A stretch of DNA of 64,000 nt from an uncultured Chloroflexia bacterium (GTDB lineage: Bacteria > Chloroflexota > Limnocylindria > Limnocylindrales > CSP1-4). The stretch lies in NCBI GenBank assembly GCA_963835945.1, contig CAWIHR010000068.1:2325-66324 (forward strand). The letters are read 5' to 3'. This document shows positions 2,185-54,900 of this stretch, one piece after another. How positions within the stretch are numbered: position 1 is the first letter of the stretch; the number at the start of each line of letters is the position of its first letter. The notes below the pieces were generated by a model. The model worked only from the letters and a program-made list of their open reading frames with translations, was not told the DNA's origin and ran no database searches. Made by a program: the position numbers and the translations under genes.

Positions 2185-2919
2185 ATGAGCGACACGACCA
2201 CCTTCCGCGTGCACCGCTACAAGCAGGGCGATGCGACGTCCCACCATGACCGCTTCGAGGTCCCGATCGGGCCGCGCACCACCGTGCTCGACGCGCTCAC
2301 CGCGATCCGCCGCACGCAGGACCCAAGCCTGACCCTCCGCCACTCGTGCTTCCACGCCTCGTGCGGCACATGCGGCATGAAGGTCAACGACCGCGAAGTC
2401 CTCGCCTGCGTGACGAACGTCCGCGAGCTCGCAGCGTCCGAGGTCGTCGTGGAGCCGCTGGACAACGCCCCGGTCGTCAGTGACCTCGTGGTGGACATGG
2501 GGCCGTTCTATGCGCGGTTCAACGCAGTCGGGCGGCCGCTGGTGCGCGAGAGCGAGCTCGTCCCTGGCTCGTACCCCGCGCCGGGGATCGCCCACTCGAT
2601 GCGCTACGAGGACTGCATCGAGTGCGGCATCTGCGTCTCCGCGTGCCCGATCGCCGGCACCGATCCGGCGTACCTGGCGCCGGCCGCGCTGGCCGCCGCC
2701 GACCGGGTCAGGGAAGAGCCGCGCGGCGGCGACGTCCCGTTCGTCATGCGGCTCGCGGACGACTCCCACGGGGCGTGGCGCTGCCACCTCGCCTTCGAAT
2801 GCAGCGAGGCCTGCCCGTCGAACGTGGAGCCCGCGGTCCACATCGCGCAGCTGCGCCGCTCGCTGATCGGGCGCCGATGGCGACGGCCGTCAGCAGAGCC
2901 AGTGGGAGCACGGCGATGA
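2185..2919 (+). CDS. Succinate dehydrogenase/fumarate reductase-type iron-sulfur subunit (SdhB/FrdB-like)
   Basis: The 2Fe-2S motif is RHSCFHASCGTCGMKVNDREVLAC. Ferredoxin-type cysteine clusters are CIECGICVSACP and CHLAFECSEACP. The start lies 5 nt after the glpA-like stop. Confidence 0.85.
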   Translation: MSDTTTFRVHRYKQGDATSHHDRFEVPIGPRTTVLDALTAIRRTQDPSLTLRHSCFHASCGTCGMKVNDREVLACVTNVRELAASEVVVEPLDNAPVVSDLVVDMGPFYARFNAVGRPLVRESELVPGSYPAPGIAHSMRYEDCIECGICVSACPIAGTDPAYLAPAALAAADRVREEPRGGDVPFVMRLADDSHGAWRCHLAFECSEACPSNVEPAVHIAQLRRSLIGRRWRRPSAEPVGARR

Positions 2920-3342
2920 GCGAACGAACCGTCGGCACAGAGCGCCCTGCCTCGCGCGCGGCGGGTCGCCGGGGCGTTGCCGGCTGGGTCGACGTCCGCG
3001 GCCGCCGGCTCGGCGGCTGGGCGTTCATCCTCAACCGCTTGGCTGGCCTGGGCGTGCTCTTCTACCTGTACCTGCACCTTGATCGTGCTCTCGCAGCTCG
3101 CGGTAGGCGCCGCGGCGTGGAACTCTCTGCTCAAGAACTGGTTCCTGAACCCCGTGTTCCTCGCCTTGGACGTCGTGCTCCTGGCCGGGCTCCTGGTCCA
3201 CGGACTGAACGGGATCCGCCTGGCCCTCGTGGGCTTCGGGCTGGTGGTCGATCGCCAGAAGGCGCTGCTGCTGGCGCTGACCGTGATCGGCGGGATCGTG
3301 CTGGTGATCGGCGTCCTGATGCTCCTCGTTCACGGGGGTTGA
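2916..3342 (+). pseudogene. SdhC/FrdC-like membrane anchor subunit with a frame break near nt 3080
   Basis: ATG 2916 overlaps the upstream stop. The first helix WAFILNRLAGLGVLFYLYLHL is in one frame. The remaining helices, IVLSQLAVGAAAWNSLL..LLAGLLVHGLNGIRLALVGFG..IGGIVLVIGVLMLLVHGG, are in the +1 frame. Confidence 0.6.
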
Positions 3343-3346
3343 GGCG

Positions 3347-3772
3347 ATGACAGGACGGGTCGAGGAAGGGCCTGGGACAACCGGACGGCCGTCGGGGCTG
3401 CCGGAGCGCTGGGCACCCGAAGAGCGTGACACCCTGCCGGGAATCGGGTGGGGCTGGCAGGCGATCACGGGCGTCGTCGTGCTGTTCCTCGTGACGCTCC
3501 ACATGATCGCCAACCACTTCGTGGTCCAGGGCGGGCTGCGCGACTACCAGCAGGTCATCGACTACATCACCAACCCGGTGATCCTGCCGCTCGAAACGCT
3601 GTTCCTCGTCGTCGTGAGCTGGCACGGCCTGCTCGGGCTGCGCGCGGTGATCTTCGACTTTGGGCTCAGCGCCCGGGCGGAGCGCATCGTCACCCGGGCC
3701 TTCGTCGTCGTCTGGCTCGTCACGATCATCTACGGCCTGGCGCTCCTGGCCATTCTCGTCACGCGACGGTGA
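3347..3772 (+). CDS. SdhD-like second hydrophobic anchor subunit
   Basis: Three predicted TM helices are visible (ITGVVVLFLVTLHMIANHF, ILPLETLFLVVVSWHGLLGLRAV, VVVWLVTIIYGLALLAILV). Each of the first two contains a His residue. It lies directly after the SdhC-like gene. Confidence 0.55.
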   Translation: MTGRVEEGPGTTGRPSGLPERWAPEERDTLPGIGWGWQAITGVVVLFLVTLHMIANHFVVQGGLRDYQQVIDYITNPVILPLETLFLVVVSWHGLLGLRAVIFDFGLSARAERIVTRAFVVVWLVTIIYGLALLAILVTRR

Positions 3773-3826
3773 ACCGAGAGGGGAGCGGCGCGGCGGGCGA
3801 AGCGGAGAGCCGTCGGCGGTCACGCG

Positions 3827-4240
3827 TTGGTCGGTGTCGTGGTCGCCTCGCACTCCGCGCAGGTGGCGGACGGCTTGGTCGAGATGGCACTCCAGATGGC
3901 CCGCGAACAGGCGCCCGAGATCCGGGTGATCGCGGCGGGGGGAGCGATCGACGGATCGCTCGGCGAGGACCCGGCTCGCATCGCCGAGGCTATCGGGGAG
4001 GCGGACGCCGGGGCGGGAGTCGTCGTGGTGGTCGACTTCAACGGGGCGGTCCACGCCAGCCGCTTTGCAATCGAGAACCTGCTCGAGCCCGCGCTTGCCG
4101 AGCGGGTGCGGATCAGTGGCGGCCCGCTCGTGGAGGGGGCGGTGTTCGCGGCCGTGCAGGCGAGCGTCGGCGACAACCTCGAGGCGGTGCTCGCTACAGC
4201 CGAGGCGGCATCCTCCTACGACAAGCACGTCGCCGACTGA
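3827..4240 (+). CDS. dhaM: PTS-dependent dihydroxyacetone kinase phosphotransferase subunit DhaM (EIIA-Man-like domain only)
   Basis: The TTG-start ORF begins VGVVVASHSAQVADGLVEMALQMA, matching the DhaM N-terminus with the phospho-His (SHS) motif. It is 137 aa, with no HPr or EI domains fused. Confidence 0.7.
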   Translation: MVGVVVASHSAQVADGLVEMALQMAREQAPEIRVIAAGGAIDGSLGEDPARIAEAIGEADAGAGVVVVVDFNGAVHASRFAIENLLEPALAERVRISGGPLVEGAVFAAVQASVGDNLEAVLATAEAASSYDKHVAD

Positions 4241-4256
4241 GTTCGGCGCGCGTCCC

Positions 4257-5303
4257 GTGCGCATCGCCGTCATCGGCGCGGGTGCCGTGGGCTCCGTCCT
4301 CGCCGGCTGTTTAGCGTCGGCCGGCCACCGCGTCGTGCTCGTGGGCCGATCCGGCCCGCCCGAACCCACGCCCGGTACGCTCGAGCTCGTCGGGCCCGGG
4401 GACCGCCGCCGGTCGCTGCGGGTCGAACGCCTCGCCGCGTCCGGCCGGTTGCCGGGCACGGATCTCGACGCGGCGGTGCTGGCGGTCAAGCGGTATGACC
4501 TGCCGGAGGCCGCGGCCATCCTGGACACGTGGCCAGCCCTGGTCGCGGTCACGGTGCAGAACGGGGTCGGCGCCGAGGAGATTGTCACGGCCCTTCGTCC
4601 AGGCAGCCCTCTCGTCGCGGCCTCGCTGACCGCCGCCGCGGAACTGGGGCTCGAGGGCGAGGTGCGATGGCTGAGACGCGGCGGCATTGGGCTCGCGCCG
4701 GTGTCTCCGGAGGTCCTGGCCCGCCGCGCCGCCCGCGCGCTGGCAAGCGCCTTCGCGGCCGGTGGGATGCCGGCGCGGACGTTCCAGAATGCGGCGGCAA
4801 TGAAATGGTCCAAGCTGCTCGCAAACCTCGTGGGCAACGCCACGAGCGCGCTGCTCGACCTCGACGTCGGAGCGATCTACGCGGATCGCGCGCTCTTCGA
4901 CGTCGAGCGGCGGCAGGAAATGGAGGCGCTAGCCGTCATGGACGCGCTCGGTCTCCCTCTCGTGGCGCTCCCCGGCGCAGACGTTCGGATGCTGGTCCGG
5001 GCCTTCCGCGTGCCAGCTCCGATCGTCCGACCGATCCTCTCCCGAGTCCTCGGCGGGGCCCGCGGTGGCAAGGTGCCATCCCTTCGGATCGCCCTGTCGG
5101 AGGCCCCTGGGCCAACTGAAATGGCCTGGCTCAACGGCGCGGTGGCGTCGGCTGCCGAACGGCTGGGCGTGAGCGCCCCCGTGAATACTTCGCTGCACCG
5201 ACTGGTCGAGGAGGCTGCCGCCGACCCGGTGCGGCGGGCTTGGTTCCGCGGCCGCCCCGACCGCTTGCTCGCCGAGCTCGCCGATACTGCGGCGGCAGGC
5301 TGA
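4257..5303 (+). CDS. 2-dehydropantoate 2-reductase family (ApbA/PanE-like) oxidoreductase
   Basis: The GTG start gives VRIAVIGAGAVGSVLAGCLASAGHRVVLVGR (Rossmann fold). KWSKLLANLVGNA matches the ApbA_C signature. Confidence 0.7.
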   Translation: MRIAVIGAGAVGSVLAGCLASAGHRVVLVGRSGPPEPTPGTLELVGPGDRRRSLRVERLAASGRLPGTDLDAAVLAVKRYDLPEAAAILDTWPALVAVTVQNGVGAEEIVTALRPGSPLVAASLTAAAELGLEGEVRWLRRGGIGLAPVSPEVLARRAARALASAFAAGGMPARTFQNAAAMKWSKLLANLVGNATSALLDLDVGAIYADRALFDVERRQEMEALAVMDALGLPLVALPGADVRMLVRAFRVPAPIVRPILSRVLGGARGGKVPSLRIALSEAPGPTEMAWLNGAVASAAERLGVSAPVNTSLHRLVEEAAADPVRRAWFRGRPDRLLAELADTAAAG

Positions 5304-7760: not shown

Positions 7761-7880
7761 GCGAGGCGCATGCACGCGCCGTGACCGTGCCCGTCGGGCA
7801 TCGGCTGCGTCGGTCGACGGGTCCTCGCCGCGTCGGCTCCCAGCGGGGACGGTCGTGGGGTGCGGTAAACTTGCCGGGCC

Positions 7881-8435
7881 ATGACGACGCGTGAGGTGAG
7901 GGGGCAAGGATCAGTGTCCGCCGACGATCTGCGCGCGAAGATCCGCGAGATCCCCGACTTCCCGAAGCCCGGCATCCTGTTCTACGACATCACGACACTG
8001 CTGAAAGACCCCGATGCGTTCAAGGGCGCGATCGATTTGCTGGTCGATCCGTACCGCGACCGACGCGTCGACGTCGTGGTCGGGATGGAATCGCGCGGCT
8101 TCATCTTCAGCGCGCCGATGGCCTACATTCTGGGGGTCGGGTTCGTGCCCGTGCGCAAGCTGGGCAAGCTGCCGGCCGAGACGGTGAGCGTGGAATACGC
8201 GCTGGAGTACGGCACGAACACGCTCGAGATCCATCGTGACGCGATCACGCCGGGCCAGCGCGTGCTGATCGTCGACGACCTGCTGGCAACGGGCGGGACG
8301 GTCAGCGGGACGATCGATCTGGTGCGCCGGATCGGTGGCGAGGTCGTCGGGCTCGTGTTCCTCGTCGAGCTGCGGTTCCTCAAAGGCCGTGAGCGCCTCC
8401 GCGGCTACGACGTGCACAGCATCATCCAGTACTGA
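7881..8435 (+). CDS. apt: Adenine phosphoribosyltransferase
   Basis: Motifs seen are IPDFPKPGILFYDIT, GMESRGFIF, and the PRPP motif VLIVDDLLATGGT. An alternative GTG start at 7914 sits behind an AAGGA. Confidence 0.9.
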   Translation: MTTREVRGQGSVSADDLRAKIREIPDFPKPGILFYDITTLLKDPDAFKGAIDLLVDPYRDRRVDVVVGMESRGFIFSAPMAYILGVGFVPVRKLGKLPAETVSVEYALEYGTNTLEIHRDAITPGQRVLIVDDLLATGGTVSGTIDLVRRIGGEVVGLVFLVELRFLKGRERLRGYDVHSIIQY

Positions 8436-8450
8436 CCGCGGGGCGCCCGG

Positions 8451-10082
8451 GTGAGCGATCGGGGTCGGGGCGACGCTCCGGACGACCGACGCCCGGGCGG
8501 GCAGGCGGAGCTGCCTTGGGCGGACAAGGGCTCCACCGACGCTGATGCAGCGATTGATCCGACGAGTCGAGCCGGCACCCAGCCTGCACCGTCTGGCGAG
8601 GCCGCAGCTCCCCCCGCTTTCGTCGCTACCGACGCGGTGCCTGAACCTGCTCCGGCCGACCTCGGCCGACGCAGCTTCTTCCGCGCGTTCAGCCGCGAGG
8701 CCGTCCAGGCGGCAGCGCAGCTGGTCGGCGCCGCCACGGCCCTGCAGCGCAGTTCGCTGGCTGCGACTGGAGAGCTCCTCGGCGGACGCCCAGCGTCCGG
8801 CGATCCGATCGGGCAGTTCCTCGAGCTGGACGACCCGCCGGCGCCGCCTCCGGTGGCGCAGTTCCGCAGCCCCTACCGGTACCGGGAGGGTGAGCTGACC
8901 CTGGTCGACCAGCGCCGGCTCCCCGACGAGCTGGTCGAGGTCACCTGCCGCACTGGCGCGGAGGTGGCTGGGTGCGTCCGCGACCGGCTCGTGCGCGGTG
9001 GTCCCGTCCTGGCGCAGGTTGCCGCGTACGGTGTGCTCGTCGCGGCCGAACGCATGCGCACGTCGACGCGGTTCATTCGCGTCGCGACCCTGCACGGCAC
9101 GATCAACGCCCTGCGCTCGTCGCGACCGAGCTCCCGTCCGATGGAGGCCGCGCTCGATCGGGTGCTGGCGACGTGGCAGCGCGTGGGCGAGGAGGCCTCC
9201 GGCGACCTGACCGCAGATGTGCTGCGCGAAGAGGCGGAAGCGATCTCGGACGAGGCCATGCTCGACCATGCCGCGCTCGGGCGGGCCGGTGCGGCCGCGC
9301 TGCCCGTCCCGCTCGAGCGGCATCTCGAAGTCCTCGTGCACGGCCCGGTGGGGGCGCTCGCCGGCGGAGCACTCGGAACCGCGGTGGCGGTCCTGCAGGA
9401 ACTGCAGGTGCAGGGCCGCGACGTCCACGTGTGGGTTCCGGAAGGGCGCCCCACGCTGCAGGGAGCGCGCATCACGGCCTTCGAGCTGGCCCGTCTCGAC
9501 ATCCGGCACACTGTCCTGGCCGACGCTGCCGCGGCCGGGATTATCGCCCGGGGGCGGGTCGATGCCATCTTCGTGGCCGCCGATCGCATCGCTCGGAACG
9601 GCGACGTGTCTGCGACGGTCGGCACGTACACGCTGGCGGTCGTCGGCGCTCGGCACGCTGTGCCGGTCTATGTCTGCGCACCGCTCTCGACAGTGGACCT
9701 GCGCGTGAATGACGCGTGGGGCTTCATGGAGGAGGAGCGCCCCGCCGACGAACTTGCCGATGTGAACGGTCGTCGCATTCCGCCGGCCGAGAGCCTCGTG
9801 CAGAACCCGGTGCTCGACGTCACGCCGGCGGCGTTGATCCGCGGGTTTGTCACCGAGTTGGGCGTGCTCGCACCGCCGTTCGAAGAGTCGCTCGAACGCG
9901 CCGTCAAACTGCGACAGTCGGGCCCGCCCGCCCCGCCCTCGCCCGAGGAGTCGCTACCGCCCGAGGCGTCGGCACTCGCCGCGGACGCCGCCGTGGACCA
10001 CGAGGCCGGGTCGGAGGGCTCCGAAACGACCGCTGCGCTGCCGTCGCCGCCGGCCGAGGATGAGGACGGCTGGGAGGGCTGA
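8451..10082 (+). CDS. eIF-2B alpha/beta/delta family protein, MtnA-like (methylthioribose-1-phosphate isomerase family), atypical
   Basis: The core YREGELTLVDQRRLPDE..ATLHGTINALRSSRP..VAADRIARNGDVSATVGTYTLAV..PVLDVTPAALIRGFVTELG matches the family. The motif position normally reading HCN(T/A)G reads HGPVG. There are extensions of about 140 aa at the N-terminus and about 70 aa at the C-terminus. Confidence 0.7.
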   Translation: MSDRGRGDAPDDRRPGGQAELPWADKGSTDADAAIDPTSRAGTQPAPSGEAAAPPAFVATDAVPEPAPADLGRRSFFRAFSREAVQAAAQLVGAATALQRSSLAATGELLGGRPASGDPIGQFLELDDPPAPPPVAQFRSPYRYREGELTLVDQRRLPDELVEVTCRTGAEVAGCVRDRLVRGGPVLAQVAAYGVLVAAERMRTSTRFIRVATLHGTINALRSSRPSSRPMEAALDRVLATWQRVGEEASGDLTADVLREEAEAISDEAMLDHAALGRAGAAALPVPLERHLEVLVHGPVGALAGGALGTAVAVLQELQVQGRDVHVWVPEGRPTLQGARITAFELARLDIRHTVLADAAAAGIIARGRVDAIFVAADRIARNGDVSATVGTYTLAVVGARHAVPVYVCAPLSTVDLRVNDAWGFMEEERPADELADVNGRRIPPAESLVQNPVLDVTPAALIRGFVTELGVLAPPFEESLERAVKLRQSGPPAPPSPEESLPPEASALAADAAVDHEAGSEGSETTAALPSPPAEDEDGWEG

Positions 10083-10948
10083 TGGTGACCCTCGCTCGAG
10101 CCCAGTCCAGCGAGCGGGGACTCGTGGTTCGGTTCACGACCGACCGGGTGCTCCTGCGCCAATTCCTCGAGCGGGACCGGCTGTTCGCCGCGTACGCCCT
10201 GTGCGACCTCGACGACCGGGAGTTTGCCCGAACCCGCTGGGGCGTCGCTTTCGACGGCCTAGTGCCGGAATCCCTCGTGCTCGAGTACGCCGGGCTGGCG
10301 CCGCAGCCCGTCTTCGTCATGGGCAATTCCGGCGGCGTCGAGGCCGTTCTCCGCGACCTCATCAGGCCCCGTGCCGCCTACGTCGCGATGTCGTACGGGG
10401 TGCTTCCCGCCGTGGAGCGCCTCTACCGCGTCGAGCCGGGACCCGAGATGATCCGCATGGCCGTGGATCGGGTGACGTTCCGCCCGCACGCTGGCCTGGC
10501 GGCGCGGATGGTGCCGGGCGAGATCGGCGACCTGAACCGCCTGTATGACCTTGGCTTCACGTCGTGGCTGCCGGCCTCGGCGATCGAGGAGGGCGTCTAC
10601 TACGGGATCCGAGTGCACGGCACGCTGGTCGCGGCCGCAGGCACCCACGTCGTCAGCCGCGAGGCGAGAATGGCGGTCGTGGGAAACGTGCTGACGCACC
10701 GGGAGCACCGCGGTCGCGGGTTCGCCAAGATCACGACCAGCGCGGTGACGCAGGAGCTGCTGCGGTCGTGCGACGAGGTCGTGCTGAACGTTCGCGCCGA
10801 CAACGCGCCCGCGATCGCCGCATATCGTACGCTTGGCTACGGCGAACACTGTCGCTTCGCTGAGCGGCTCGCCCACAGGCGTGCCTCGACCCTCGATGGC
10901 ATCATGGCACCGCTACGGCGCCTCTTCCCAGCCCGGAAGGAGCCCTGA
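10082..10948 (+). CDS. GNAT-family N-acetyltransferase
   Basis: The acetyl-CoA motif [20 protein letters not shown] and [18 protein letters not shown] are present. ATG 10082 overlaps the upstream TGA. Confidence 0.75.
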
Positions 10949-10977
10949 CCTTTCCGGCCCGCAGGAGTTCCACACAC

Positions 10978-12252
10978 ATGTCCGTCGCCCAACTGCCGGC
11001 CCACGATGTCGCCGACCTTGCGCTCGCCGCCGAGGGGCGACGTCGCATCGAGTGGGCCGAGCGAGAGATGCCGGTGCTGCGCCTGATCCGCGAGCGGTTC
11101 GAGCAAGAACGCCCCTTGGCGGGGGTGCGGATCGCGGCCTGCCTGCACGTGACGGCTGAGACCGCGAACCTGGTGCGGACGCTCCAGGCGGGCGGTGCGG
11201 CGATCGCGCTTGCCGCTTCAAACCCGCTCTCTACCAAGGACGACGTGGCGGCGGCCCTCGTAGCGGTATACGGCATCCCCACCTACGCCAGGCATGGCGT
11301 GGACCGCGACGGCTACTACGCGCACCTCAACGCGATCGCCGACACGCATCCGTTAGTTACCATGGACGACGGGTGCGACTTGGTGACGCTGCTGCACACG
11401 GAGCGCCCCGGGCAGGTCCCCGAGGTAATGGCGGGCACCGAGGAGACCACGACCGGGGTCGTCCGGCTCCGCGCGATGGCCGCCGACGGAGCGCTGGGCT
11501 ACCCCGTCGTGGCGGTCAACGAGGCCAAGACGAAGCACCTCTTCGACAACCGGTACGGGACCGGCCAGTCGGCCGTCGACGGGATTCTCCGCGCCACAAA
11601 CATCCTCCTGGCCGGTCGCCACGTGGTGGTGGCCGGGTACGGCTGGGTCGGACGGGGGATCGCTTCCCGGTTCCGGGGAATGGGCGCGCAGGTCGCGGTC
11701 ACGGAGGTCGACCCGATCCCGGCGATCGAGGCGCTCATGGACGGCTTCGTGGTGCTGCCGATGGCCGACGCGGCGCCCTGGGGAGAAGTCTTCATCACGG
11801 CCACGGGCGACCTCAACGTCATTCGCGAGGAGCACTTCCGCGTGATGCGCGACGGCGCGATCCTCGCCAACGCCGGACACTTCGACGCGGAGATCGAGCT
11901 CCCGGCCCTCCGCCGCCTGGCCGACGGCCGCGTCCGCGAAGTGCGCCCCGACGTCGACGAGTACGACCTCGGCGACCGGCGCCTCAGGCTGGTGGTCGAG
12001 GGCCGGCTGGTCAACCTCGGAGCTGCCGAGGGCCACCCCGCCGCTGTCATGGACATGAGCTTCGCGAACCAGGCGCTCGGTGTGGAGTACGTGGTGGCAC
12101 ACCACGGCGAGCTCGATCGCGCGGTCTACGCCGTGCCCGACGCAATCGACCGGGAGGTGGCCCGCCTGAAGCTCGAGGCGCTGGGGATCGGGATCGACGA
12201 GCTGACGCCCGAGCAGCGGGCGTACCTCTCGTCCTGGACGAGCGGCACGTAG
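10978..12252 (+). CDS. ahcY: Adenosylhomocysteinase
   Basis: Motifs seen are [53 protein letters not shown], the NAD fold [13 protein letters not shown], and GHFDAEI. Confidence 0.95.
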
Positions 12253-34933: not shown

Positions 34934-35554
34934 GTGTTGAGGAAGGTAAGTGGTCGAGACGAGGAGGCCCTCGTCGTGTTCGACCCGGATCGGCCCGCGG
35001 TTGAGGCTGCCCGCCGCGACCCCAGCCGGTTCGAGACGCTGTATCGAAGGTACGTGGCCCAGGTCTACAGCTTCGCGGTCTACGAGCTTGCCGACCATCA
35101 CGCCGCCGAGGACCTGACCGAGCAGGTCTTCCTGCAGGCGCTGGCCGCGCTACCGCGCTTCCGGGAGGTACCGCGCGCGACGGGAACGTCGAGCTTCCGC
35201 TCGTGGCTGTTCCAGATCGCCCGGCACCTAGCGAGCAACGAGCGCCGGGCGGCTCGAAGGCACCCGATCGCCCCGCTCGACGCCGCCCTCGATGTCTCCG
35301 GCCAGGACGACCCGGCCGCGGCATCCGCCCGCCGCGACGAAGCGACACGTGCCTGGCGGGCGGTGGACCGCCTTTCCGCCGACCGGCGCACGGCCGTGAT
35401 CCTGCGTTTCGTCGACGAGATGTCGATCCCGGAGATCGCCGGCGTCTTGGGCCGATCGGAAGGGGCGGTGCGGGTCCTGCTGCACCGCGCGCTGCGGAGC
35501 GTCTCTGACGAGCTCCGGGAGCCGGGGGCACAGGCCCGCGGGGACGCCAAGTGA
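34934..35554 (+). CDS. ECF-type RNA polymerase sigma factor
   Basis: Region 2 reads FETLYRRYVAQVYSFAV..AEDLTEQVFLQAL. Region 4 reads RTAVILRFVDEMSIPEIAGVLGRSEGAVRVLLHRALR. Confidence 0.85.
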   Translation: MLRKVSGRDEEALVVFDPDRPAVEAARRDPSRFETLYRRYVAQVYSFAVYELADHHAAEDLTEQVFLQALAALPRFREVPRATGTSSFRSWLFQIARHLASNERRAARRHPIAPLDAALDVSGQDDPAAASARRDEATRAWRAVDRLSADRRTAVILRFVDEMSIPEIAGVLGRSEGAVRVLLHRALRSVSDELREPGAQARGDAK

Positions 35555-35922
35555 CAGACGTCCAGGACGACCTCGACCTGCGCGACCCAGAGCTTGCCCA
35601 CGCCGCCGAGGTGCTGTCTCGCAGCCTCGTGCGCTTTCATCCCTCGTTCCGTTTCGAAGAGGGACTCGCCGCACGGCTGCGACGCGCAGCCTGGCCCCGT
35701 GCGGTGCCCGCCGACCTCGAGGAGCCGCGGACGGCGTTGGTGCCGATGCCGCGAGTCCGTGCCTTTCCCCTGCCCGTCGCCCTCGAGCTCGCCGCGCCCG
35801 CGTCGTTCGGGCGTGTCGTCGGGCGGGTCCCTCGTCCCGTGCTCGTCGGAGGCGCCATCGCGTCAGGCATGTCGATCGCCGGAGCCGTCGTCGCCTGGTG
35901 CCGGCTGCGGAAGGACGCCTGA
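35551..35922 (+). CDS. Putative anti-sigma factor (single C-terminal TM helix)
   Basis: The GTG overlaps the sigma stop (GTGA). It is 123 aa with the helix VLVGGAIASGMSIAGAVVAW near the C-terminus. No zf-HC2 motif is present. The assignment is by position only. Confidence 0.4.
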   Translation: MTDVQDDLDLRDPELAHAAEVLSRSLVRFHPSFRFEEGLAARLRRAAWPRAVPADLEEPRTALVPMPRVRAFPLPVALELAAPASFGRVVGRVPRPVLVGGAIASGMSIAGAVVAWCRLRKDA

Positions 35923-45453: not shown

Positions 45454-45594
45454 GGCGGCAATGGGGCGGCGTAGGTTCCCATGGCAGGCGCGCCCGGTGT
45501 CCTCGTCCAGATACGTCCGTGACACCGGACCTGGGCGCGGGGTGAGGCGCGAGCGGGCCTGAGAAGGCAAGGAGAGCCCTCGCTACGCTGGGAG

Positions 45595-46698
45595 TGTCAG
45601 CCACCAGCAGCAGGAGGACCCTCGGTGATCAAGTCTAGGCGTCAGCGCGCCCATCCCCACGGCACGAGCGCCCACAACCGGTTGATCCGCCGGCGGGCCG
45701 CTGCGATCGTTCGCGAAGCCGCGCCCGCCCTGTCCCGCGACGCCCGGCGGCGCCTCAGCATGGTCGACTGGCACCGGGCCCACGGTGGGAACGTGAGCCT
45801 GACCGCCCGTCACTACGGCGTCGGTCGCTCGACGGTGTATCGCTGGCTCGGGCGGTACGACCGGTTCCATCTCGAGACCATCGAGGACCGCGGCTCCGCG
45901 CTACGCCGCCGGCGTCGGCCGACCCCGACGCTCGCTTTAGCTGGAGGCCGTCCGCTCGATCCGCGAGCGCTATCCGCGCTCATAGTAAGGACAAGCTCCG
46001 GATCCTCCTCCGACGGGCCGGGATGGCGCTCTCGACCTCGATGGTGGGGCGGATCCTGGGCCGGCTGCTGCGGGCCGGCGATCTCCACGAGCCCCACCGA
46101 CGTCGGATGAGCGTCCGGCAGCGTCGCTGGCAGCGACCGTATGCGATCCGCAAGCCGGCCGGCTGGGCAGTCCAGTCGCCGGGCGACCTCGTCCAGCTCG
46201 ACACGCTCGACATCCGGCCCCTGCCCGGCCAGATCTGGAAGCAGTTCACCGCTCGCGATGTCGTGTCCCGCTCCTGACACCGTCGAGCTCGGGCGGCGGG
46301 CGACCGCCGCGGCCGCGGCGGCGGTCCTCGATCGCCTTGCGGAGCGGATGCCCCTCCGCGTCCGGGCCATCAGCATCGAGGACGGCTCCGAGTTCACGGC
46401 CGAGTTCGAGACCGCCTGTGCCGAGCGGGGGATCCGGCTGTTCGTCCTCCCGCCCCGCTCGCCCAAGCTAGAACGGGGCAGTCGAGCGGGCCACCCGGAC
46501 CCACACCGAGGAGTTCCACGATGTCACCGCTGCTGAGCCCGAGCTCGCCGCCTTCCAGGTCGAGCTGCGAGCCTGGGAGACCGTGTACAACACGATCCGA
46601 CCCCATCAGTCGCTCGGCTATCTCACCCCGGCCGAATACCTCGCCTTCGTCGGCATCGATGTGTATCGGACGTACTGAACGAGTACAGCGGATTGACA
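45595..46698 (+). mobile_element. Decayed IS481-like insertion sequence (about 1.1 kb); ends are tentative
   Basis: It contains a frameshifted HTH plus rve-type integrase gene. TGTCA at 45595 and its complement TGACA at 46694 are the only terminal inverted match I can see. No target-site duplication was recognised. Confidence 0.5.
45625..46678 (+). pseudogene. IS481-family (DDE/rve) transposase with at least three frame breaks
   Basis: The HTH piece is LTARHYGVGRSTVYRWLGRY. SPGDLVQLDTLDIRPLPGQIWKQFTARDVVSR, AISIEDGSEFTAEFETACAERGIRLFVLPPRSPKL and TEEFHDVT..WETVYNTIRPHQSLGYLTPAEY each lie in a different frame. Confidence 0.75.
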
Positions 46699-48206: not shown

Positions 48207-48452
48207 GAGGTGTCCGCGTGATCGATCTGTCCGACAAGAGCGCCATCGTCACCGGCGGTGCGCGCGGAATCGGGCGCGCCATCGTGCTACGCCTGGCTCG
48301 CCAGGGCGCGGACATCGCGTTCCTGGACCGAGGGCCCGTCGAGAGCGCGGAGGCGACCCGCGGCGACGTGGAGGCGCTCGGCCGGCGCTGCTTCTGGGTC
48401 GAGGGCGATGTGAGTGACCCGGAGGCGGCCCCCGCGCTCGTCGCGCGCACGG
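48207..48452 (+). repeat. Direct repeat copy 2 (246 bp)
   Basis: See copy 1. Similarity ends abruptly after gcgctcgtcgcgcgcacgg. Confidence 0.9.
48218..48452 (+). pseudogene. Truncated duplicate of the fabG 5' end (78 codons)
   Basis: VIDLSDKSAIVTGGARGIGRAIVLRLARQGADIAFLDRGPVESAEATRGDVEALGRRCFWVEGDVSDPEAAPALVART is followed by unrelated sequence. Confidence 0.85.
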
Positions 48453-48728
48453 CAAGAGACGGCCCCACGCAATACGGGACCAGGGGCCGCCGGGACACGG
48501 GTAGCCGTGGTGCTGGACGGGCGCGCTACCATTCCCGCTGAGCGCGGTCGGCGCGTAGGCCGGGTGATCGGGGACGTATCGGGCGATCGACGCAGCACGA
48601 AGACGAAGGAGTGGGTCGCGGGAAGGTCGTATCCGTCCCGCGTGATGTAGCGTCGAGGCGCCAAGGTGTGGCAGACTGCGGATCACAGGCGCGGGTATCC
48701 GAGCTTGCCGGCCGTCCGCGAGCCGGGG

Positions 48729-49529
48729 ATGGACCGCCGCAGGGGGCGGGCCGTCGAGGGCCTACCCGGAGGACGCGTGCAGAACAGCGTCTGGGATGAG
48801 CGTGAGCTTGTCCGACGATGCAAGGAAGGCTCCGAGGCGGCCTACGCTGAGCTGGTCCGCCAGCACGGTGTCCGTCTCGTCACGCTCGCGTACCGCCTAA
48901 CGGGCAGCCGCGAGACGGCCGAGGACGTGGTCCAGGAGACCTTCCTCGCCGCCTTCCGTGCCATGGAGCGGTTCGAGCCGAAGCCGGCGCTCGCTCCTTG
49001 GCTGACGACCATCGCCGTGCGGTTCGCCTCGAAAGCGACCACGCGCCAGCCCCGTCCGACCTCCCTCGACGCGCTGATGGGGTCAGACCCCACGGATGGC
49101 GGCCCGGCCTTCCAAGTGGTATCGACCGCGCCCGACCCCCATGCCAGCGCTGAGGCCGCCGAGATCCGCGCGGAGGTCCAGCGCGCGCTCGACACACTGC
49201 CGTTCAAGCAGCGGTCGGCGGTCGTGCTGCGGCTCGTCATCGGGATGGACTACGCCGAAGCTGCCCGCGCCATGGACGTGCCGCTCAACACATACAAGAG
49301 CCTGCTCCTGCGCGGGACTCGGCAGCTGCGCGAGACCCTAGGGCCGCGTGTTGTCGGGCCCCAGGCGGGGGACGGCGTCCCGGCCGAGGACGCGGCTATC
49401 ACCGTGCCGCTCGAGCCCACGTCGAGCGCGGGTCGCGACGACGGCAGGAATTCCGCCCTCATTGCTCGTCCACCGCTCCGAGCCCCTATCGACCGCGAGC
49501 CGGTCGAGATGGCGGCCGAGTCGGAGTAG
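48729..49529 (+). CDS. ECF-type RNA polymerase sigma factor (second copy in the window)
   Basis: Region 2 reads AYAELVRQHGVRLVTLAYRLTGSRETAEDVVQETFLAAF. Region 4 reads QRSAVVLRLVIGMDYAEAARAMDVPLNTYKSLLLRGTRQLR. The start could be 48666, 48729 or 48777. Confidence 0.85.
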   Translation: MDRRRGRAVEGLPGGRVQNSVWDERELVRRCKEGSEAAYAELVRQHGVRLVTLAYRLTGSRETAEDVVQETFLAAFRAMERFEPKPALAPWLTTIAVRFASKATTRQPRPTSLDALMGSDPTDGGPAFQVVSTAPDPHASAEAAEIRAEVQRALDTLPFKQRSAVVLRLVIGMDYAEAARAMDVPLNTYKSLLLRGTRQLRETLGPRVVGPQAGDGVPAEDAAITVPLEPTSSAGRDDGRNSALIARPPLRAPIDREPVEMAAESE

Positions 49530-49564
49530 CTGCTGCGGAACCCGACCGCGCCTCCCGAGGAAGA

Positions 49565-49593
49565 TTGACCATTCTACGTTGTGAACGTAGGAT
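49565..49593 (+). promoter_or_regulatory. Sigma-70-like promoter with a palindromic operator, predicting a leaderless transcript for the MNT/HEPN pair
   Basis: TTGACC (49565-70), a 17-nt spacer, then TAGGAT (49588-93), then 6 nt, then ATG 49600. The spacer contains CTACGTT-gtg-AACGTAG (49574-49590). Confidence 0.5.
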
Positions 49594-49599
49594 TGCTGC

Positions 49600-50469
49600 A
49601 TGGTCTCGATCTTCTCCTCGCATCGCGCGCTCGAGGCTCTGGCGGCGCTGGAACAGCGCGGCGAAGCCGGCCTCCGCTTGGCCGAGGTTGCCAAGGCCGT
49701 GGGCGCGCCCGTCTCGAGCACGCAGGTCGCCCTCGGCGTGTTGATGGAGGACGGCCTGGTTTCGACGGGGTCCACGCGTCCTCCCATGTATCGGATCGCG
49801 CGCGACGAGCGCGACTCTACGGAGAAGATCCTGGATGTCGCCATGCGGCTTGCCGACGGGGCTCGACTGCTGCACGCCGCGCTGCGCGTTAATCGTGCGG
49901 TCGAGTTCGCTGCCGACGACGCAGCGGGGTTGCTGCTCGTCATCCGATGGGACGCTGAGCCGCCCGACGAGGTTCTCCTCGACCGAATGCTGCGACGCAT
50001 CGATCTCGAGATCGCCCGCTTCGGCCACGACGAAGCGCGGGAGCGGCTGCGCGCCGGGGCGTCGCTGCGCGAGCGCGCCAGCCACGGTCGGGTCATTGTC
50101 GGCTCGGTGGACCGCTCATTCCCCCACCCGTTCCGCCATGGGTCTCCCGACGCGCAGCCGCTGGGCCGTCTCAATCCGGCGGTTGCTCGTCCGTCGCGCA
50201 GCGCCCTCGCTCGCATCGCTCGCCGGTTCGGGCTGTCCGAGGTTCGAGTCTTTGGCTCGGCCGTGCATGCGGACTTCCGGTCTGACTCGGACATGGACGT
50301 CATGGTCCGGCGGAAGCCCGGCATCCGGCGGACGCTCGAAGAAGAGCTCTCGCTGCGTCGCGCCCTCGAGGACCTGCTGGACCGGGACGTGGACGTGGTG
50401 GACGCACGCGTGCTCCGTCGGCCCATCCGGGAGAAGGTCGAGTCCGACGGGGTGATCCTCTATGGATGA
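49600..50469 (+). CDS. Winged-HTH N-terminal region fused to a minimal nucleotidyltransferase (MNT) domain; putative antitoxin/regulator
   Basis: The N-terminus is LRLAEVAKAVGAPVSSTQVALGVLMEDGLVS. The C-terminus is RVFGSAVHADFRSDSDMDVMV (G-S..S-D-x-D) with RRPIREKVESDGVILYG. At 289 aa it is longer than the roughly 100-140 aa typical of MNT proteins. Confidence 0.7.
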   Translation: MVSIFSSHRALEALAALEQRGEAGLRLAEVAKAVGAPVSSTQVALGVLMEDGLVSTGSTRPPMYRIARDERDSTEKILDVAMRLADGARLLHAALRVNRAVEFAADDAAGLLLVIRWDAEPPDEVLLDRMLRRIDLEIARFGHDEARERLRAGASLRERASHGRVIVGSVDRSFPHPFRHGSPDAQPLGRLNPAVARPSRSALARIARRFGLSEVRVFGSAVHADFRSDSDMDVMVRRKPGIRRTLEEELSLRRALEDLLDRDVDVVDARVLRRPIREKVESDGVILYG

Positions 50470-50890
50470 CCGGGACCGACAACACCTCCGCAACCTCATC
50501 GCGCATGCGCAGGCGGCGATCGGATACACGACCGCGCACGGTCGCGGCTGGTGGAAGAACGCGGAGACGCTCGATGCCGTCCTGATGCGGATCTCGCAGG
50601 TCAGCGAGGCCGCGACCAGGACCTCGCCCGAAGCGTTGGCGGAAGTGCCCGGCGTCGTCTGGCGAGACGTCAAGGGCGTGCGTGCCAGGATCGTGCACGA
50701 TTACCAGTCCATCGACGTGCTCGTGATCCGCGGCGTAGTTGCCCGTCAGCTCCCGCGCCTGGTCGCACGCGTGGAGCGGGCGCTTGCCGCGGACGAGAGG
50801 CGCAGACTGCCGCCCGACACGCTTTCCCTAGATGCCCCGCATACCGCTGCTCAGCCCCGGCGACGACCGGGTGGGCAGGCCTCGGCGTGA
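50462..50890 (+). CDS. HEPN-domain (DUF86-type) protein; putative toxin partner of the MNT
   Basis: The ATG overlaps the MNT gene by 8 nt. The R-x4-H motif lies in GVRARIVHDYQSIDVLVI. Confidence 0.7.
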   Translation: MDDRDRQHLRNLIAHAQAAIGYTTAHGRGWWKNAETLDAVLMRISQVSEAATRTSPEALAEVPGVVWRDVKGVRARIVHDYQSIDVLVIRGVVARQLPRLVARVERALAADERRRLPPDTLSLDAPHTAAQPRRRPGGQASA

Positions 50891-50975
50891 ACGCCGTGGG
50901 GTCACCCCGCGGCCGACCCATGACGAAGGTACTCCAAGCCGGGGCTGCAACCTTTCACGGGCATCGTGGCTTTCT

Positions 50976-51764
50976 ATGAATGTGACTACCTGCGCGGCTG
51001 CCCAGGACCTGATCGACGCCTTCGTGACCGGAGGCCTCCCGGACCCGGCTGCCACGTCGCTCGCCGACCACGTGCGGACCTGTCCTGCCTGCGCCGCGCG
51101 CCTCGGCAGCATTACTCGCCTCGTGGAGCTCCTAGCCGCACTTCCCGACGTGCCACCTACTCCTGACTTCGACGAGCGTGTCATGCTGGCCTCGCTCGCG
51201 GACCGGCGTCGGCGCCACGAGCATCGCAACTGGTTGGCCGATCTGTGGACGCAGATCCTGCGCGGCACGGTGCGCACGACGGGCACGTTCATGGCCACGG
51301 TCGCCATCGTTGCGGTCCTCGCCGTCGGTGGCGTGTGGGCGGCCTCGAACCTCGTGCCGGGCTTCGCCCAGCAGGTGGGCCTCGCGCCGCAGCCGACGCC
51401 GAGGCACGTGGCGGTCACGCTCGCGACGCCGTCTCCCACCGCGACTCCGGCGGCGAGGGCCACGCCCGCGCCGCTCGTCGTCGCGGCGACCACGAGACCC
51501 ACACCGGCGCCCACGCCTTCTCCCACCCAGCGGCCCACGCCCGCCGCGACGACGAGCCCGACCCCTTCGCCATCGCCTAGCCCGACCCCGGCACCCACTA
51601 GCACCGTGGCTGCTCAAACTGTCACACCACCGCCGTCCGCCTCGGCCACGCCGACCCCGACCGCGTCACCATCGCCCACACGCAAGCCGCGCCGCTGCCC
51701 GCCGGGCACCGCGTGCTACTCACCTACCCCGACGCCGGGTGCGGCGTCTCCCACATCGCCGTAA
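50976..51764 (+). CDS. zf-HC2 anti-sigma factor with a TM helix and a Pro/Thr-rich extracytoplasmic tail
   Basis: The H-x3-C-x2-C motif is in ADHVRTCPACAARL. The TM helix is GTFMATVAIVAVLAVGGVWAA. A PT-rich tail of about 130 aa follows (TPAPTPSPTQRPTPAATTSPTPSPSPSPTPAPT). Confidence 0.75.
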   Translation: MNVTTCAAAQDLIDAFVTGGLPDPAATSLADHVRTCPACAARLGSITRLVELLAALPDVPPTPDFDERVMLASLADRRRRHEHRNWLADLWTQILRGTVRTTGTFMATVAIVAVLAVGGVWAASNLVPGFAQQVGLAPQPTPRHVAVTLATPSPTATPAARATPAPLVVAATTRPTPAPTPSPTQRPTPAATTSPTPSPSPSPTPAPTSTVAAQTVTPPPSASATPTPTASPSPTRKPRRCPPGTACYSPTPTPGAASPTSP

Positions 51765-51922
51765 CAGCGAGGCGGGCAGTGCCCGTCTCGTCGTTCCGGG
51801 CCTTGCGCAAGGCGTTGTTGTACGTGTTACCGGGGTCCACGCAAAGGAGGGTGGAAGGAAGCCCCGGACCCGGCCCTGCGGGGTCGGACCATCAGCCCAA
51901 TCTCTCTAGGAGGTCTACGGAC

Positions 51923-54900
51923 TTGGGAATCACTAAGAGGGCGATCAGCGTCGGCGTCACTGCCACGATGCTCGCCTCACTCATTGGCGCAGCATTCGCT
52001 GGCGGCGCGGCCGCCGCTACCATGTCTGTCACGACCGAGCTGACGACCCAACCGATCAGCTCGATCAACGCACTTCCGACCGGAACCGCACTGGTCTCCT
52101 TCGTGCCGGTGCAACAGGTCGGCCCCAGCACGACCATCGATGTCAACTTCGGCGGCGGCCTCGGGACCATCGATCCCACGCCGGCCGATTGGCACCTGCA
52201 GCAAGGCACCACCGACGTCGCCTTCACGCTTGCCCCAACGGTCAGCACCAACGGGCAGGTCATTGGCTTCGTGGTGCCCGCTGGCACGACGCTTAATCCG
52301 GCGATCGCCGTGAGCATCGTCGCACAGACCCTCAATGAGGTCGACTACGGCACGAAGGCCGGCACCTTCGACATCACCGTGACCACGCCGCTCGGAGATA
52401 CCGGGTTCGCGACGTACACGGTCACGCCAGGGGCGGCAGCACTAGGCACCGTCTCGGCCAGCCCGACGTCCGTTGCGGCGGACGGCGTTAGCACCTCGAC
52501 CATCACCGCGACGGTCACCGATGCGTCCGCCAACCCGGTCGCAGGCGTGACCGTCAACTTCGCAAAGACCGGATCCGCTGTCCTCTCGGCGGCTTCCGCG
52601 GTGACCAACGCCAGCGGCGTTGCCACAGTCACCGTGACGGATGCCACCGTCGAGTCCTCAACGATCACGCCGACGGCAACGGGCGTTACGTTTACGCCCC
52701 TCACCGTGGCGGTCTCCTTCACCGCTGTGTCGGCCTCGGTGACCTGCACGCCCTCGGGCGGCCCCATCGGGAACGGCGCTCCAGTGAGTTGCGTGTACAC
52801 GCCCGGCAATCCGCTGACCACAGTAAGCTGGACCTCGACGAACTTCACGCCGACAACCAGCAGCACCGATAGCCAGACGTTCACCGCGGCCAACATGAGC
52901 TCGAGCACGGTCACCGGGACCATCACGGCCACCGGTTCGGGCGGGCTCGTCGCGACCTTCACCTATAGCATTAGCCCAACTGCCGTGGCTGCCCCGGGTG
53001 CGCCTACGACGGCTGGCACGATCACCCTGTCCAATACGGTCTCCATCCCGCAGGGGAGCAAGACCCCCGTCACCCTCGGCACGTACACCTTCACCGAAGG
53101 CACGGCGGGTGACTGGCAGGCTAACGACTGGGTGCAGGTGTGCTTCGCCGACAATGCGGGCGCAACCAACACCATGACCCTCGCAGGCGGAGTCGTCACC
53201 GGACCCGGTGCGCTCGACTTCACCGCGGTGGGCGCGGGCCTGTCGATTAGCAACGGCCCGCCCTGCTTCAAGGTGACGCTCGGCGGGAGCAGCACAGGCG
53301 TGGGTGCCTACCTGGAGTCGTTCCAGGTCAGCGGCCTGACCCTGACGGGCGTGGGCCCGACCGGGCTTGTCGCTGCACCCGGCACCATCGTGGGACCTGG
53401 CAGCACCTCTTACGCCACCTACACGTCCTCCATGCATGCGCTGACCCCGGCCGGTGTCTACACCGCGTACTTCGGCGGCGTTAGCGCCACCGCGAGCGGC
53501 ACGCTCGCCGATGCGTACAACTCGTCGAGCCCCGGGGTCGAGCCGGTCGTCGTCAACATGACGGCGGGCAGCAAGGCGTTCCAAACCCCCGGCACGCTGG
53601 TCGTGGGTGGCGCGAAGGCCGAGTCCGCTCCCATCGTCGCAGTCAGCACCGTCGTCGGCTCCCTCTGCGGCACCTTCACGCTTCTGGGCAACCAGGAGTG
53701 CCTGACCGTCGACTTCGCCAATAGCCACAGCGTGGGCGACCCACTCAGCGAGAGCATCTCCGGCCTGTCCGGCACTGCGCCCTCCCCGGGCTCGGTGAGT
53801 GAAGGGCTCGCACTGGCTCTGTATCCCTCTGGCGCAGCTGTCCCGCAGCTCCGCATCGGTGTCACCGATCAGAAGCCGGACAGCGTCAGCCTCTCTGAGC
53901 AGGCCGGCTCCAATGGCGTGATCGCAGTGGGCACGGTCATCACGCTGACCGCGCCCGCGGGGGTGCTCTTCACGAGCGCACCCATCCTTGACCCGGCCTC
54001 CTTTGAGTGCCCGGCGGTGGTCTATGCTGGGACCACCTATGAGGCCTTCCAACTGAACTCCAACATCGCGACGCTGTCGCTCGATCGGTCCAGCGCGACC
54101 TTCACCGTCGAGTACGCCGATCCGGCCTTCACCGTGAGCGGCGCGTCGAGCAACTGCGTCACCAGTCTCGTGTTCGACATGCAGTACGACGTGGCGTCGT
54201 CGAGCGTCGCGGGCGGCGCGATCAATCTGGCCGTGACGGCCGGCGCGATCCCCGTCGTCCCGGCGACCATCGAGAATGCCAGCGTCGGCGCGGGGATCGT
54301 CGTGAACGCCACGGCCCCCACCATCTCCATCGGACAGAATGACCAGGCCCTCGGCACGGTCAACATCGTCGAGAACGCGGCTGGGGCCCTCAGCGCGTCC
54401 GCCAATACGGACACGTTCTTCGTGTGCCTGACCAGCGGCGAGTACTTCACCCGACCCCCGTGGGCGGTCGTGACGGCCGGTAACCTGTTGCTCGGCCTGA
54501 ACGGCGTCCTGACGGGTGCTGGCGTGACCCAGTCGGCCGGCGTGCCGGTCAACATCTCGGGGCCTGGCCTCATCGTCAGCGCACCCAGCTACGCTAACCA
54601 GGCCTGCTATGGCTGGACCGTCTACAGCGCGAGCACCACGGCCTCGACCATCGCGATCGAGGGCGTGAGCGCATCGGGCACACCGACCGCCACGGCGCAC
54701 GTTAACGTGCCGACGACCGAACCGGTCGGGCTCGGTGGACTTGTCGCGGGAACGGCGCTGACGCCCGGACCCACGTACATGGCCATCGGCACCGCGTTCA
54801 GCCTGTCTTCTACCGCCGGCAACCTGATCAACATCGCGACCGTCGCCGTCCGGGCGTTTTCGTCCGGGATCACGGTCACCGCGCTCAGCCAGCCCTACAT

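Follow-up and report, generated by a model that had tools for sequence, protein, structure and literature searches.

Why should a sigma factor gene and the gene for its apparent anti-sigma factor, normally a contiguous regulatory pair, be held apart by a toxin-antitoxin-like module? The question is raised by a locus on contig CAWIHR010000068.1 of an uncultured Chloroflexia bacterium, of which a stretch of 64,000 nucleotides (here called the window, meaning the whole stretch) was analysed. In this locus a gene for a sigma factor of the extracytoplasmic function (ECF) type is followed by a gene for a winged helix-turn-helix (wHTH) protein ending in a minimal nucleotidyltransferase (MNT) domain, a HepT-type HEPN gene and a zf-HC2 anti-sigma factor gene. 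All four genes are co-directional on the + strand and lie where a preliminary description of the locus had placed them. The interval between sigma and anti-sigma genes, put at about 1.45 kb in that description, measures 1446 nt from the sigma stop (49529) to the ATG at 50976. The account favoured here, with a probability of about 0.78 for the whole, is that the two regulators are a cognate pair, that the interval between them is an insertion hotspot whose cargo turns over, and that in the window a mobile cassette has been inserted there with the anti-sigma promoter left intact. The arrangement is real but mostly ordinary, and its novelty is modest. The main features are as follows.

48777 to 49529, + strand: ECF sigma factor gene, 250 aa from the GTG at 48777 (a longer open reading frame begins at 48666/48729)
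49562 to 50890, + strand: mobile type VII-like toxin-antitoxin cassette (promoter, operator, wHTH-MntA, HepT), about 1.3 kb, delimited by nucleotide homology
49600 to 50469, + strand: wHTH-linker-MNT gene, 289 aa (Pfam HTH_IclR and Polbeta/NTP_transf_2)
50462 to 50890, + strand: HepT-type HEPN gene, 142 aa (Pfam HepT-like, E 4.4e-11)
50976/50982 to 51764, + strand: zf-HC2 membrane anti-sigma factor gene of the zinc-associated anti-sigma (ZAS) type (open reading frame from 50832), identified by Pfam zf-HC2 and by reading of the sequence

Empty sites, junctions and cargo in the sigma/anti-sigma gap

Orthologous loci were gathered by sigma-protein pattern scans of genome and metagenome collections and by exact-protein look-ups. 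The relatives are uncultured Chloroflexota labelled Chloroflexia or Limnocylindrales, and their backbone was compared by tblastn with the window proteins. The conserved backbone comprises genes for a fabG-like SDR, the sigma factor, the anti-sigma factor, a Big_1-type surface protein (1326 aa in the window, encoded 3' of the anti-sigma gene) and a Big_5/PPC protein, and the anti-sigma orthologue is found downstream of the sigma orthologue in 14 loci. Relatives without the insert, for which the preliminary description had suggested a comparative search, do exist. More specifically, the sigma and anti-sigma genes of loci L025 and L029 are adjacent, with 48-65 nt between them that hold a conserved promoter-like element; its -35 box, TGCAAC, begins at 1845 in L025 (sigma stop 1831) and at 2052 in L029 (sigma stop 2021). 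Elsewhere the distance from the sigma stop to this promoter box, measured in the 12 loci with a placeable sigma stop, extends to more than 4 kb, and the cargo found within it differs from locus to locus.

L025: 13 nt
L029: 30 nt
L022: 306 nt
L002: 793 nt; DUF5674 protein with a second small domain, either fused to it or adjoining
Window: 1416 nt; MNT/HEPN cassette
L009: 1816 nt; Big_1-like gene
L013: 2247 nt; cargo includes MNT/HEPN
L006: 2638 nt; second ECF sigma gene and XRE regulator, both on the minus strand
L001: 3042 nt; remnant of the L002 cargo, IS481-like element, then MNT/HEPN
L007: 3806 nt; two lipoprotein-like paralogues and an XRE regulator
L024: 4121 nt; AbiEii-like pair, DUF433-like and DUF5615-like genes and a minus-strand AAA-type ATPase gene (7814-11670; read by eye from translated open reading frames)
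L017: 4333 nt; AbiEii, DUF433 and DUF5615 genes (Pfam), then MNT/HEPN (2270-5013)
L003: AbrB-like gene with PIN toxin gene (VapBC), and an ATPase_2/DUF234 gene
L004: DUF6036 nucleotidyltransferase pair

The junctions of the variable DNA can be read from pairs of related loci. L026, which carries cargo, and L029, which is empty, are sisters in the sigma tree (100/99), and the nucleotide homology between them stops exactly at the sigma stop codon. Between the window and the cassette-free loci L002 and L011, homology stops at 49333-49348, in the tail of the sigma gene, and resumes at 50903-50910. The site of insertion is bounded on the left by the sigma stop, or by the tail of sigma that is not conserved, and on the right by the anti-sigma promoter. 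This tail, about 60 aa beyond region 4 in the window protein, is not conserved and could not be aligned among 12 orthologues. Every sigma orthologue has such a tail of 40-90 aa past region 4, not alignable between lineages, and the left junction of the variable region in the window falls within it (49349-49529). The surroundings of the sigma gene also differ in compactness: in L025 (1-4479) the fabG, sigma, anti-sigma and Big_1 genes follow one another directly and sigma has no accessory DNA next to it, whereas in the window inserts border the sigma gene to the left (44.7-48.5 kb) and to the right (49.5-50.9 kb).

An MNT/HEPN pair is present at only 5 of about 17 orthologous loci (the window, L103, L001, L013/L014 and L017), and among these the spacing from sigma to MNT takes values of 67-70 nt, 0.9 kb, 1.8 kb and 3.1 kb. 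A constant four-gene order with conserved spacing, which by the terms of the preliminary description would have spoken against an insertion, is therefore not what the relatives exhibit. The gap states are scattered across the sigma tree, and in several relatives the cargo includes minus-strand genes. Since the states are so scattered and their contents so varied, the gap is best read, from sequence comparison, as a recombination and insertion hotspot with a rapid turnover of small accessory modules, toxin-antitoxin cassettes for the most part; the cargo of the window would then be a single mobile cassette of about 1.3 kb. Two observations may be added on the cargo itself. The gaps of L017 and L024 hold stacked toxin-antitoxin-like modules. 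A degenerate IS481-like element 5' of sigma in the window (45498-46697) is 73% identical in nucleotides to L001 9343-10546, which sits in the sigma/anti-sigma gap of that locus, and both copies appear frameshifted.

Chromosomal integration hotspots ('islets') for toxin-antitoxin and defence modules occur between conserved core genes. The gap resembles them in its conserved flanks, its variable and mostly toxin-antitoxin cargo, its rapid turnover between close relatives and its lack of a dedicated integrase. It differs from them in that the flanks are a normally contiguous regulatory pair and in that the right boundary always spares the anti-sigma promoter. No published example of a toxin-antitoxin module lodged between a sigma gene and its anti-sigma gene turned up in a literature search.

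A mobile, probably self-regulated variant of HepT/MntA

Nucleotide homology to the cassettes of L001, L013, L015, L016, L017, L019 and L021 starts at 49562-49572, at the cassette's own -35 hexamer, and among cassette copies it ends at 50764-50820 (about HepT residue 100-120) irrespective of the flanking DNA. The promoter and operator that the preliminary description had attributed to the two-gene module can both be recognised.

49565 to 49593, + strand: cassette promoter, TTGACC-17 nt-TAGGAT, the only sigma-70-like site in 48300-52100 (0.1 expected)
49574 to 49590: operator palindrome CTACGTT-GTG-AACGTAG, perfect with 7-bp arms, in the promoter spacer

The ATG of the cassette lies 6 nt past the -10 hexamer, and its mRNA is therefore probably leaderless. 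The 8 independent loci compared share the -35 and -10 hexamers, the palindrome arms and the 6-nt start distance; the loop of the palindrome and the flanking DNA differ among them. Protein searches recovered about 96 clusters with a common wHTH-MNT architecture of about 288 aa; gene contexts were covered for about 12 of these 96 clusters and include six unrelated contexts outside the sigma gap.

L015: Rieske and TPR genes
L016: CSD and PfkB genes; HepT truncated
L019/L020: glycosyltransferase cluster
L021: polysaccharide cluster
L102: group II intron reverse transcriptase
L104: microcompartment genes

Together with the empty sites, the minority of orthologous loci that carry the cassette and its variable spacing, these contexts bear out the suggestion in the preliminary description that a toxin-antitoxin cassette was inserted into a sigma/anti-sigma pair. 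In L102 (2343-5366) the cassette lies immediately 3' of a group II intron reverse transcriptase gene (RVT_1 and GIIM domains), and a group II intron is a possible hitch-hiking route for it. In L016 (5860-6293) the HepT gene is interrupted (a 69-aa call and two tblastn pieces) beside an intact wHTH-MNT gene, which may reflect a decaying toxin or an assembly error. Inverted repeats considered as cassette ends (e.g. 49372-49389 with 50880-50897, 83%) are weak and lie off the homology boundary at 49562.

The MNT tree bears on how the cassette came to its present distribution. The window and L001 cassettes are sisters in this tree (100/99), the L013 cassette joins those of L019 and L015, and that of L017 branches at the base of a 50-row clade, so that the cassettes of the sigma context are not monophyletic. 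An independent acquisition in the window and in L001, first suggested by equal MNT identities of 75%, is not upheld in view of the sisterhood of these two; non-congruence between the MNT and sigma trees remains for L013 and L017. Measured from the window, L001 and L017 lie at nearly equal distances along the MNT tree (path lengths 0.40 and 0.41), while the corresponding sigma paths (0.14 and 0.93) are about 7-fold apart; the cassette therefore did not simply diverge in step with its locus. These data were weighed against the alternative that MNT/HEPN is an ancient resident beside the anti-sigma gene, that the other gap states arose by deletion or replacement and that the copies elsewhere escaped from this site. 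Such a history would suit the sisterhood of the window and L001 cassettes and the basal position of the sigma-context cassette of L017; it would also suit the observation that no other cargo comes between the cassette and the anti-sigma gene, any extra modules being stacked towards sigma, as fits an insertion point at the sigma stop codon. It is nevertheless unlikely, given the mismatch of MNT and sigma path lengths, the grouping of the L013 cassette with cassettes from other contexts, the empty sites with their clean spacers of 13-30 nt and the unrelated cargo of L002, the sister of L001.

The proteins of the cassette point to the type VII toxin-antitoxin systems. In the first protein Pfam places HTH_IclR at residues 9-55 and Polbeta/NTP_transf_2 at residues 205-288, and the nucleotidyltransferase motif GSX10DXD is present as GSAVHADFRSDSDMD at residues 219-233 (50254-50298); G219, D231 and D233 are invariant and S220 nearly so (at least 90%) in 30 homologues. 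An AlphaFold (AF2) model of this protein (predicted local distance difference test, pLDDT, 91.7) has three parts, of which the N-terminal winged helix matches IclR, ArsR and MarR regulators and the C-terminal domain matches the MntA structures 7bxo, 6m6u and 5yep. A structure search with the model returned no full-length match, and the middle domain of about 120 aa had no structural counterpart. The HEPN gene overlaps the MNT gene by 8 nt, and its RX4HXY motif, RARIVHDY at residues 74-81 (50681-50704), is conserved in 7 of 7 cassette homologues compared, while the HepT tail past about residue 115 is variable. The pairing of the two genes (PF01909-type and PF01934, above the Pfam gathering scores) is kept in every context examined.

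GSX10DXD and RX4HXY are the motifs that define type VII HepT/MntA systems, in which MntA AMPylates a tyrosine next to the HepT RNase motif (PMC7641770). Like the Shewanella oneidensis pair (SO_3166/SO_3165; PMC7641770), the cassette has an MNT gene upstream of and overlapping a HEPN gene, GSX10DXD in the MNT protein, RX4HXY with the acceptor tyrosine in the HEPN protein, and a modelled C-terminal MNT domain that superposes on the three MntA structures. The MNT proteins of that study are smaller than 150 aa (PMC7641770), whereas the window protein is not a minimal single-domain MNT: it has 289 aa, with an IclR/MarR-like winged helix at its N-terminus and the middle domain preceding the MNT domain. 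The cassette further differs from the S. oneidensis system in having a palindromic operator within a leaderless promoter. The N-terminal winged helix of the wHTH-MntA protein would bind the palindrome and autorepress the leaderless sigma-70-type promoter of the cassette, and the C-terminal MNT domain would AMPylate HepT at Tyr81 within RX4HXY and so keep the RNase inactive.

The putative anti-sigma promoter and the coupling of the pair

The assignment of the two regulators is clear from their domains. The sigma reading frame (48666-49529) matches Sigma70_r2 (E 2.8e-16) and Sigma70_r4_2 (E 1.3e-11) in Pfam and scores 77 bits against TIGR02937 (sigma70-ECF; cut-off 42.9); with regions 2 and 4 only, it is an ECF (group 4) sigma factor. 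Its most likely start is the GTG at 48777, which follows a Shine-Dalgarno sequence (GGAGGA, 48768-48773), is kept in all orthologues and has equivalents picked by gene callers in L013, L017 and L103. The anti-sigma protein scores 26.1 bits against PF13490 (zf-HC2; cut-off 22.2) and carries the N-terminal ZAS motif HxxxCxxC as HVRTCPAC at residues 32-39 (51069-51092); a single hydrophobic segment (about residues 103-123) is followed by a Pro/Thr/Ser-rich extracytoplasmic tail. The start common to the loci is the GTG at 50982, and the ATG at 50976 occurs only in the closest relatives. Canonical coupled operons have no promoter between the two genes, the anti-sigma start touching or overlapping the sigma stop, and the interval in the window departs from this. 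A conserved element lies directly before the anti-sigma gene.

50946 to 50984, + strand: anti-sigma promoter-like element, TGCAAC (50946-50951), 18 nt, CTTTCT (50970-50975), 6 nt, GTG 50982

The geometry TGCAAC-N18-CWTNNN-N6-GTG is found 5' of the anti-sigma gene in 14 loci, empty sites included, the exceptions being a 16-nt spacer in L011 and a distance of 8 nt with an ATG start in L009. The full pattern has exactly one match in each of the 13 loci that fit it, always before the anti-sigma gene and nowhere else in the loci scanned, and TGCAACYTY occurs once in the 64-kb window. The element can also be read as TGCAAC-N15-(C/G)G(T/C)C(A/T)T, as in L022 (TGCAAC-N15-CGTCTT) and L013 (TGCAAC-N15-CGTCAT), and its sequence suggests a promoter of ECF type (AAC ... 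sGyCWT) whose transcripts would have no leader or almost none. The targets of Streptomyces coelicolor sigma-E include promoters of the TGCAAC...CGTCT type (PMC6767563). The element resembles these sigma-E-type promoters in its -35 (TGCAAC/GGAAC) and its CGTCTT-like -10, and is set apart from them by a start codon only 9 nt past the -10, which implies a near-leaderless transcript. We infer that the neighbouring sigma factor recognises it. The closest documented design is sigH-rshA of Corynebacterium glutamicum, in which rshA has its own SigH-dependent promoter and exerts negative feedback (PMC3489674). As in the window, a ZAS-type anti-sigma gene there lies 3' of an ECF sigma gene with a promoter between them. 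The genes of C. glutamicum, however, are adjacent and also co-transcribed, whereas 1.4 kb of foreign DNA separates those of the window, where the anti-sigma protein is predicted to be membrane-anchored and the sigma dependence of the promoter is suggested by its sequence.

The preliminary description had also proposed that the insertion would uncouple the stoichiometry of a co-translated pair. This reading is not supported. Because the promoter is conserved even at the empty sites, the pair was never translationally coupled in this lineage before the insertion, and the minus-strand cargo of relatives rules out obligatory co-transcription. The adjacent pair at 34934-35922, with which the locus had been compared, stands in part: its first gene does encode an ECF sigma factor (206 aa), and a 123-aa open reading frame comes next, with an overlap of 4 nt and a hydrophobic segment at its C-terminus. 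This second frame has no Pfam match, and is therefore plausibly, not demonstrably, an anti-sigma gene.

Under the favoured account, the sigma factor and the zf-HC2 anti-sigma factor would form a cognate pair conserved across Limnocylindria-like Chloroflexota, with L025 and L029 preserving its minimal adjacent form. The ECF-type, near-leaderless promoter, placed 13-30 nt past the sigma stop in that form, would drive the anti-sigma gene and probably the downstream surface-protein genes. The insertion would probably leave the sigma/anti-sigma circuit largely unaffected because this promoter was retained intact, and would add at most some read-through from the sigma and cassette promoters.

The same promoter is central to a different explanation, in which the sigma/anti-sigma circuit has co-opted the MNT/HEPN pair as part of a composite unit and read-through from the cassette promoter alters anti-sigma dosage and surface-protein expression. 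In four lineages, with sigma identity down to 59-67%, the cassette is the immediate 5' neighbour of the anti-sigma promoter and shares its strand, at a distance of 22-63 nt from the -35 box, and there is no convincing terminator between HepT and the anti-sigma gene. (The region as a whole yielded two weak hairpins, no more than in shuffles; the one between these genes, at 50955-50969, falls within the spacer of the anti-sigma promoter, lacks conservation and was rejected as a terminator.) A recruited regulatory part would be hard to reconcile, however, with a cassette that is absent from most orthologous loci, which hold other cargo or none, and that is autonomous in six unrelated contexts; moreover, the gene beside the anti-sigma promoter is on the minus strand in L024 and L006, and the promoter itself is unchanged with or without the cassette. 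Recruitment is on these grounds quite unlikely. A more elaborate proposal, that the sigma/anti-sigma gap of Limnocylindria is a dedicated docking site for toxin-antitoxin and defence cassettes, set between the sigma gene and a sigma-dependent, leaderless operon of anti-sigma and surface-protein genes, and that cassette read-through links toxin-antitoxin activation (e.g. upon phage attack) to anti-sigma dosage and surface-protein remodelling, is speculative and distinctly improbable.

It might further be argued that the zf-HC2 protein regulates another sigma factor and that its linkage to this one is inherited synteny. Separate promoters, a pair never translationally coupled and the second ECF sigma gene within the gap of L006 would all be compatible with this. 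The order of sigma then anti-sigma has, on the other hand, been kept in 14 loci despite complete turnover of the cargo, L025 and L029 have the two genes side by side, and the anti-sigma promoter is of ECF type, all of which make a non-cognate pair very improbable and favour a physical pairing of the two proteins. Lastly, a mis-assembly that joined the cassette into the locus, as might be feared for an uncultured source with several frameshifted metagenome bins among its relatives (L011 is an error-prone long-read bin), can practically be dismissed, since the order sigma-MNT-HEPN-anti-sigma recurs, with 67-nt spacing and an MNT protein 91% identical, on L103, an independent ENA contig of a different sample, the cassette occupies this site in three further assemblies, and the composition of the region (about 70% G+C) is uniform across the junctions.

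Two further conserved elements flank the regulatory genes.

48667 to 48677, + strand: TGTGGCAGACT element, conserved, about 100 nt 5' of the sigma start
51759 to 51867, + strand: conserved structured RNA leader, spanning the anti-sigma stop codon, before the first surface-protein gene (Shine-Dalgarno sequence 51909, TTG 51923)

Of 21 orthologous loci, 19 carry the core of the first, GGCAGACT, at -107 to -215 relative to the sigma GTG (at -35 in L007), and TGTGGCAGACT may serve as an extended -10 promoter (TG-n-CAGACT) or as a leader element. A second motif, GGGAAs-N15-18-CGTs, occurs 5' of sigma in the window's clade, in L003-L006 and in L013; it is absent from L017, L022, L024, L025 and L027, and no claim of sigma autoregulation is based on it. 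The region 51759-51867 is 70-91% identical in nucleotides among 11 loci and is more conserved than the flanking coding sequence. It folds into three helices, with 95.5% of cells paired against 37-52% in slid controls, and has 22 cells with compensatory changes, a level reached by 0 of 500 shuffles. Rfam has no match anywhere in 48400-52200. The region looks like a lineage-specific structured leader between the anti-sigma and surface-protein genes.

Weight of the evidence and significance

Several points weigh against the favoured account or parts of it. No recombinase, target-site duplication or terminal repeat was found that defines the movement of the cassette. In all five MNT/HEPN gap loci the cassette lies directly 5' of the anti-sigma promoter and co-directional with it, and this constant position could reflect old co-residence or a functional link instead of repeated insertion. 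Within the window's clade the anti-sigma promoter has a degenerate -10 (TGGCTT, as against CGTCTT or CGTCAT elsewhere), and the spacer between TGCAAC and the CGTC-like box is 15 nt, compared with 17 nt in S. coelicolor sigma-E promoters. Finally, the NCBIfam equivalogs for MntA (NF047752, 43.8 bits) and HepT (NF047751, 20.8 bits) both score below their cut-off of 60 bits. Since both scores fall short and the antitoxin is twice the usual size, the window cassette, known from its sequence and a structural model, is best regarded as a variant of the HepT/MntA family that probably works like it, not as a typical member.

The significance of the locus lies first in what a regulatory pair can accommodate. 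The empty sites, the exact junctions and the cargo turnover indicate that this sigma/anti-sigma pair tolerates kilobases of mobile DNA between its genes, likely because the anti-sigma gene keeps its own promoter. This is relevant to annotation pipelines that predict anti-sigma partners by adjacency alone. The cassette, for its part, is a compact, mobile and probably self-regulated HepT/MntA variant whose parts all lie within about 1.25 kb, which makes it an easy bench target. The comparison also brings to light, for a phylum that has been little studied, two non-coding elements that are conserved: the promoter of the anti-sigma gene and the structured leader ahead of the surface-protein genes.

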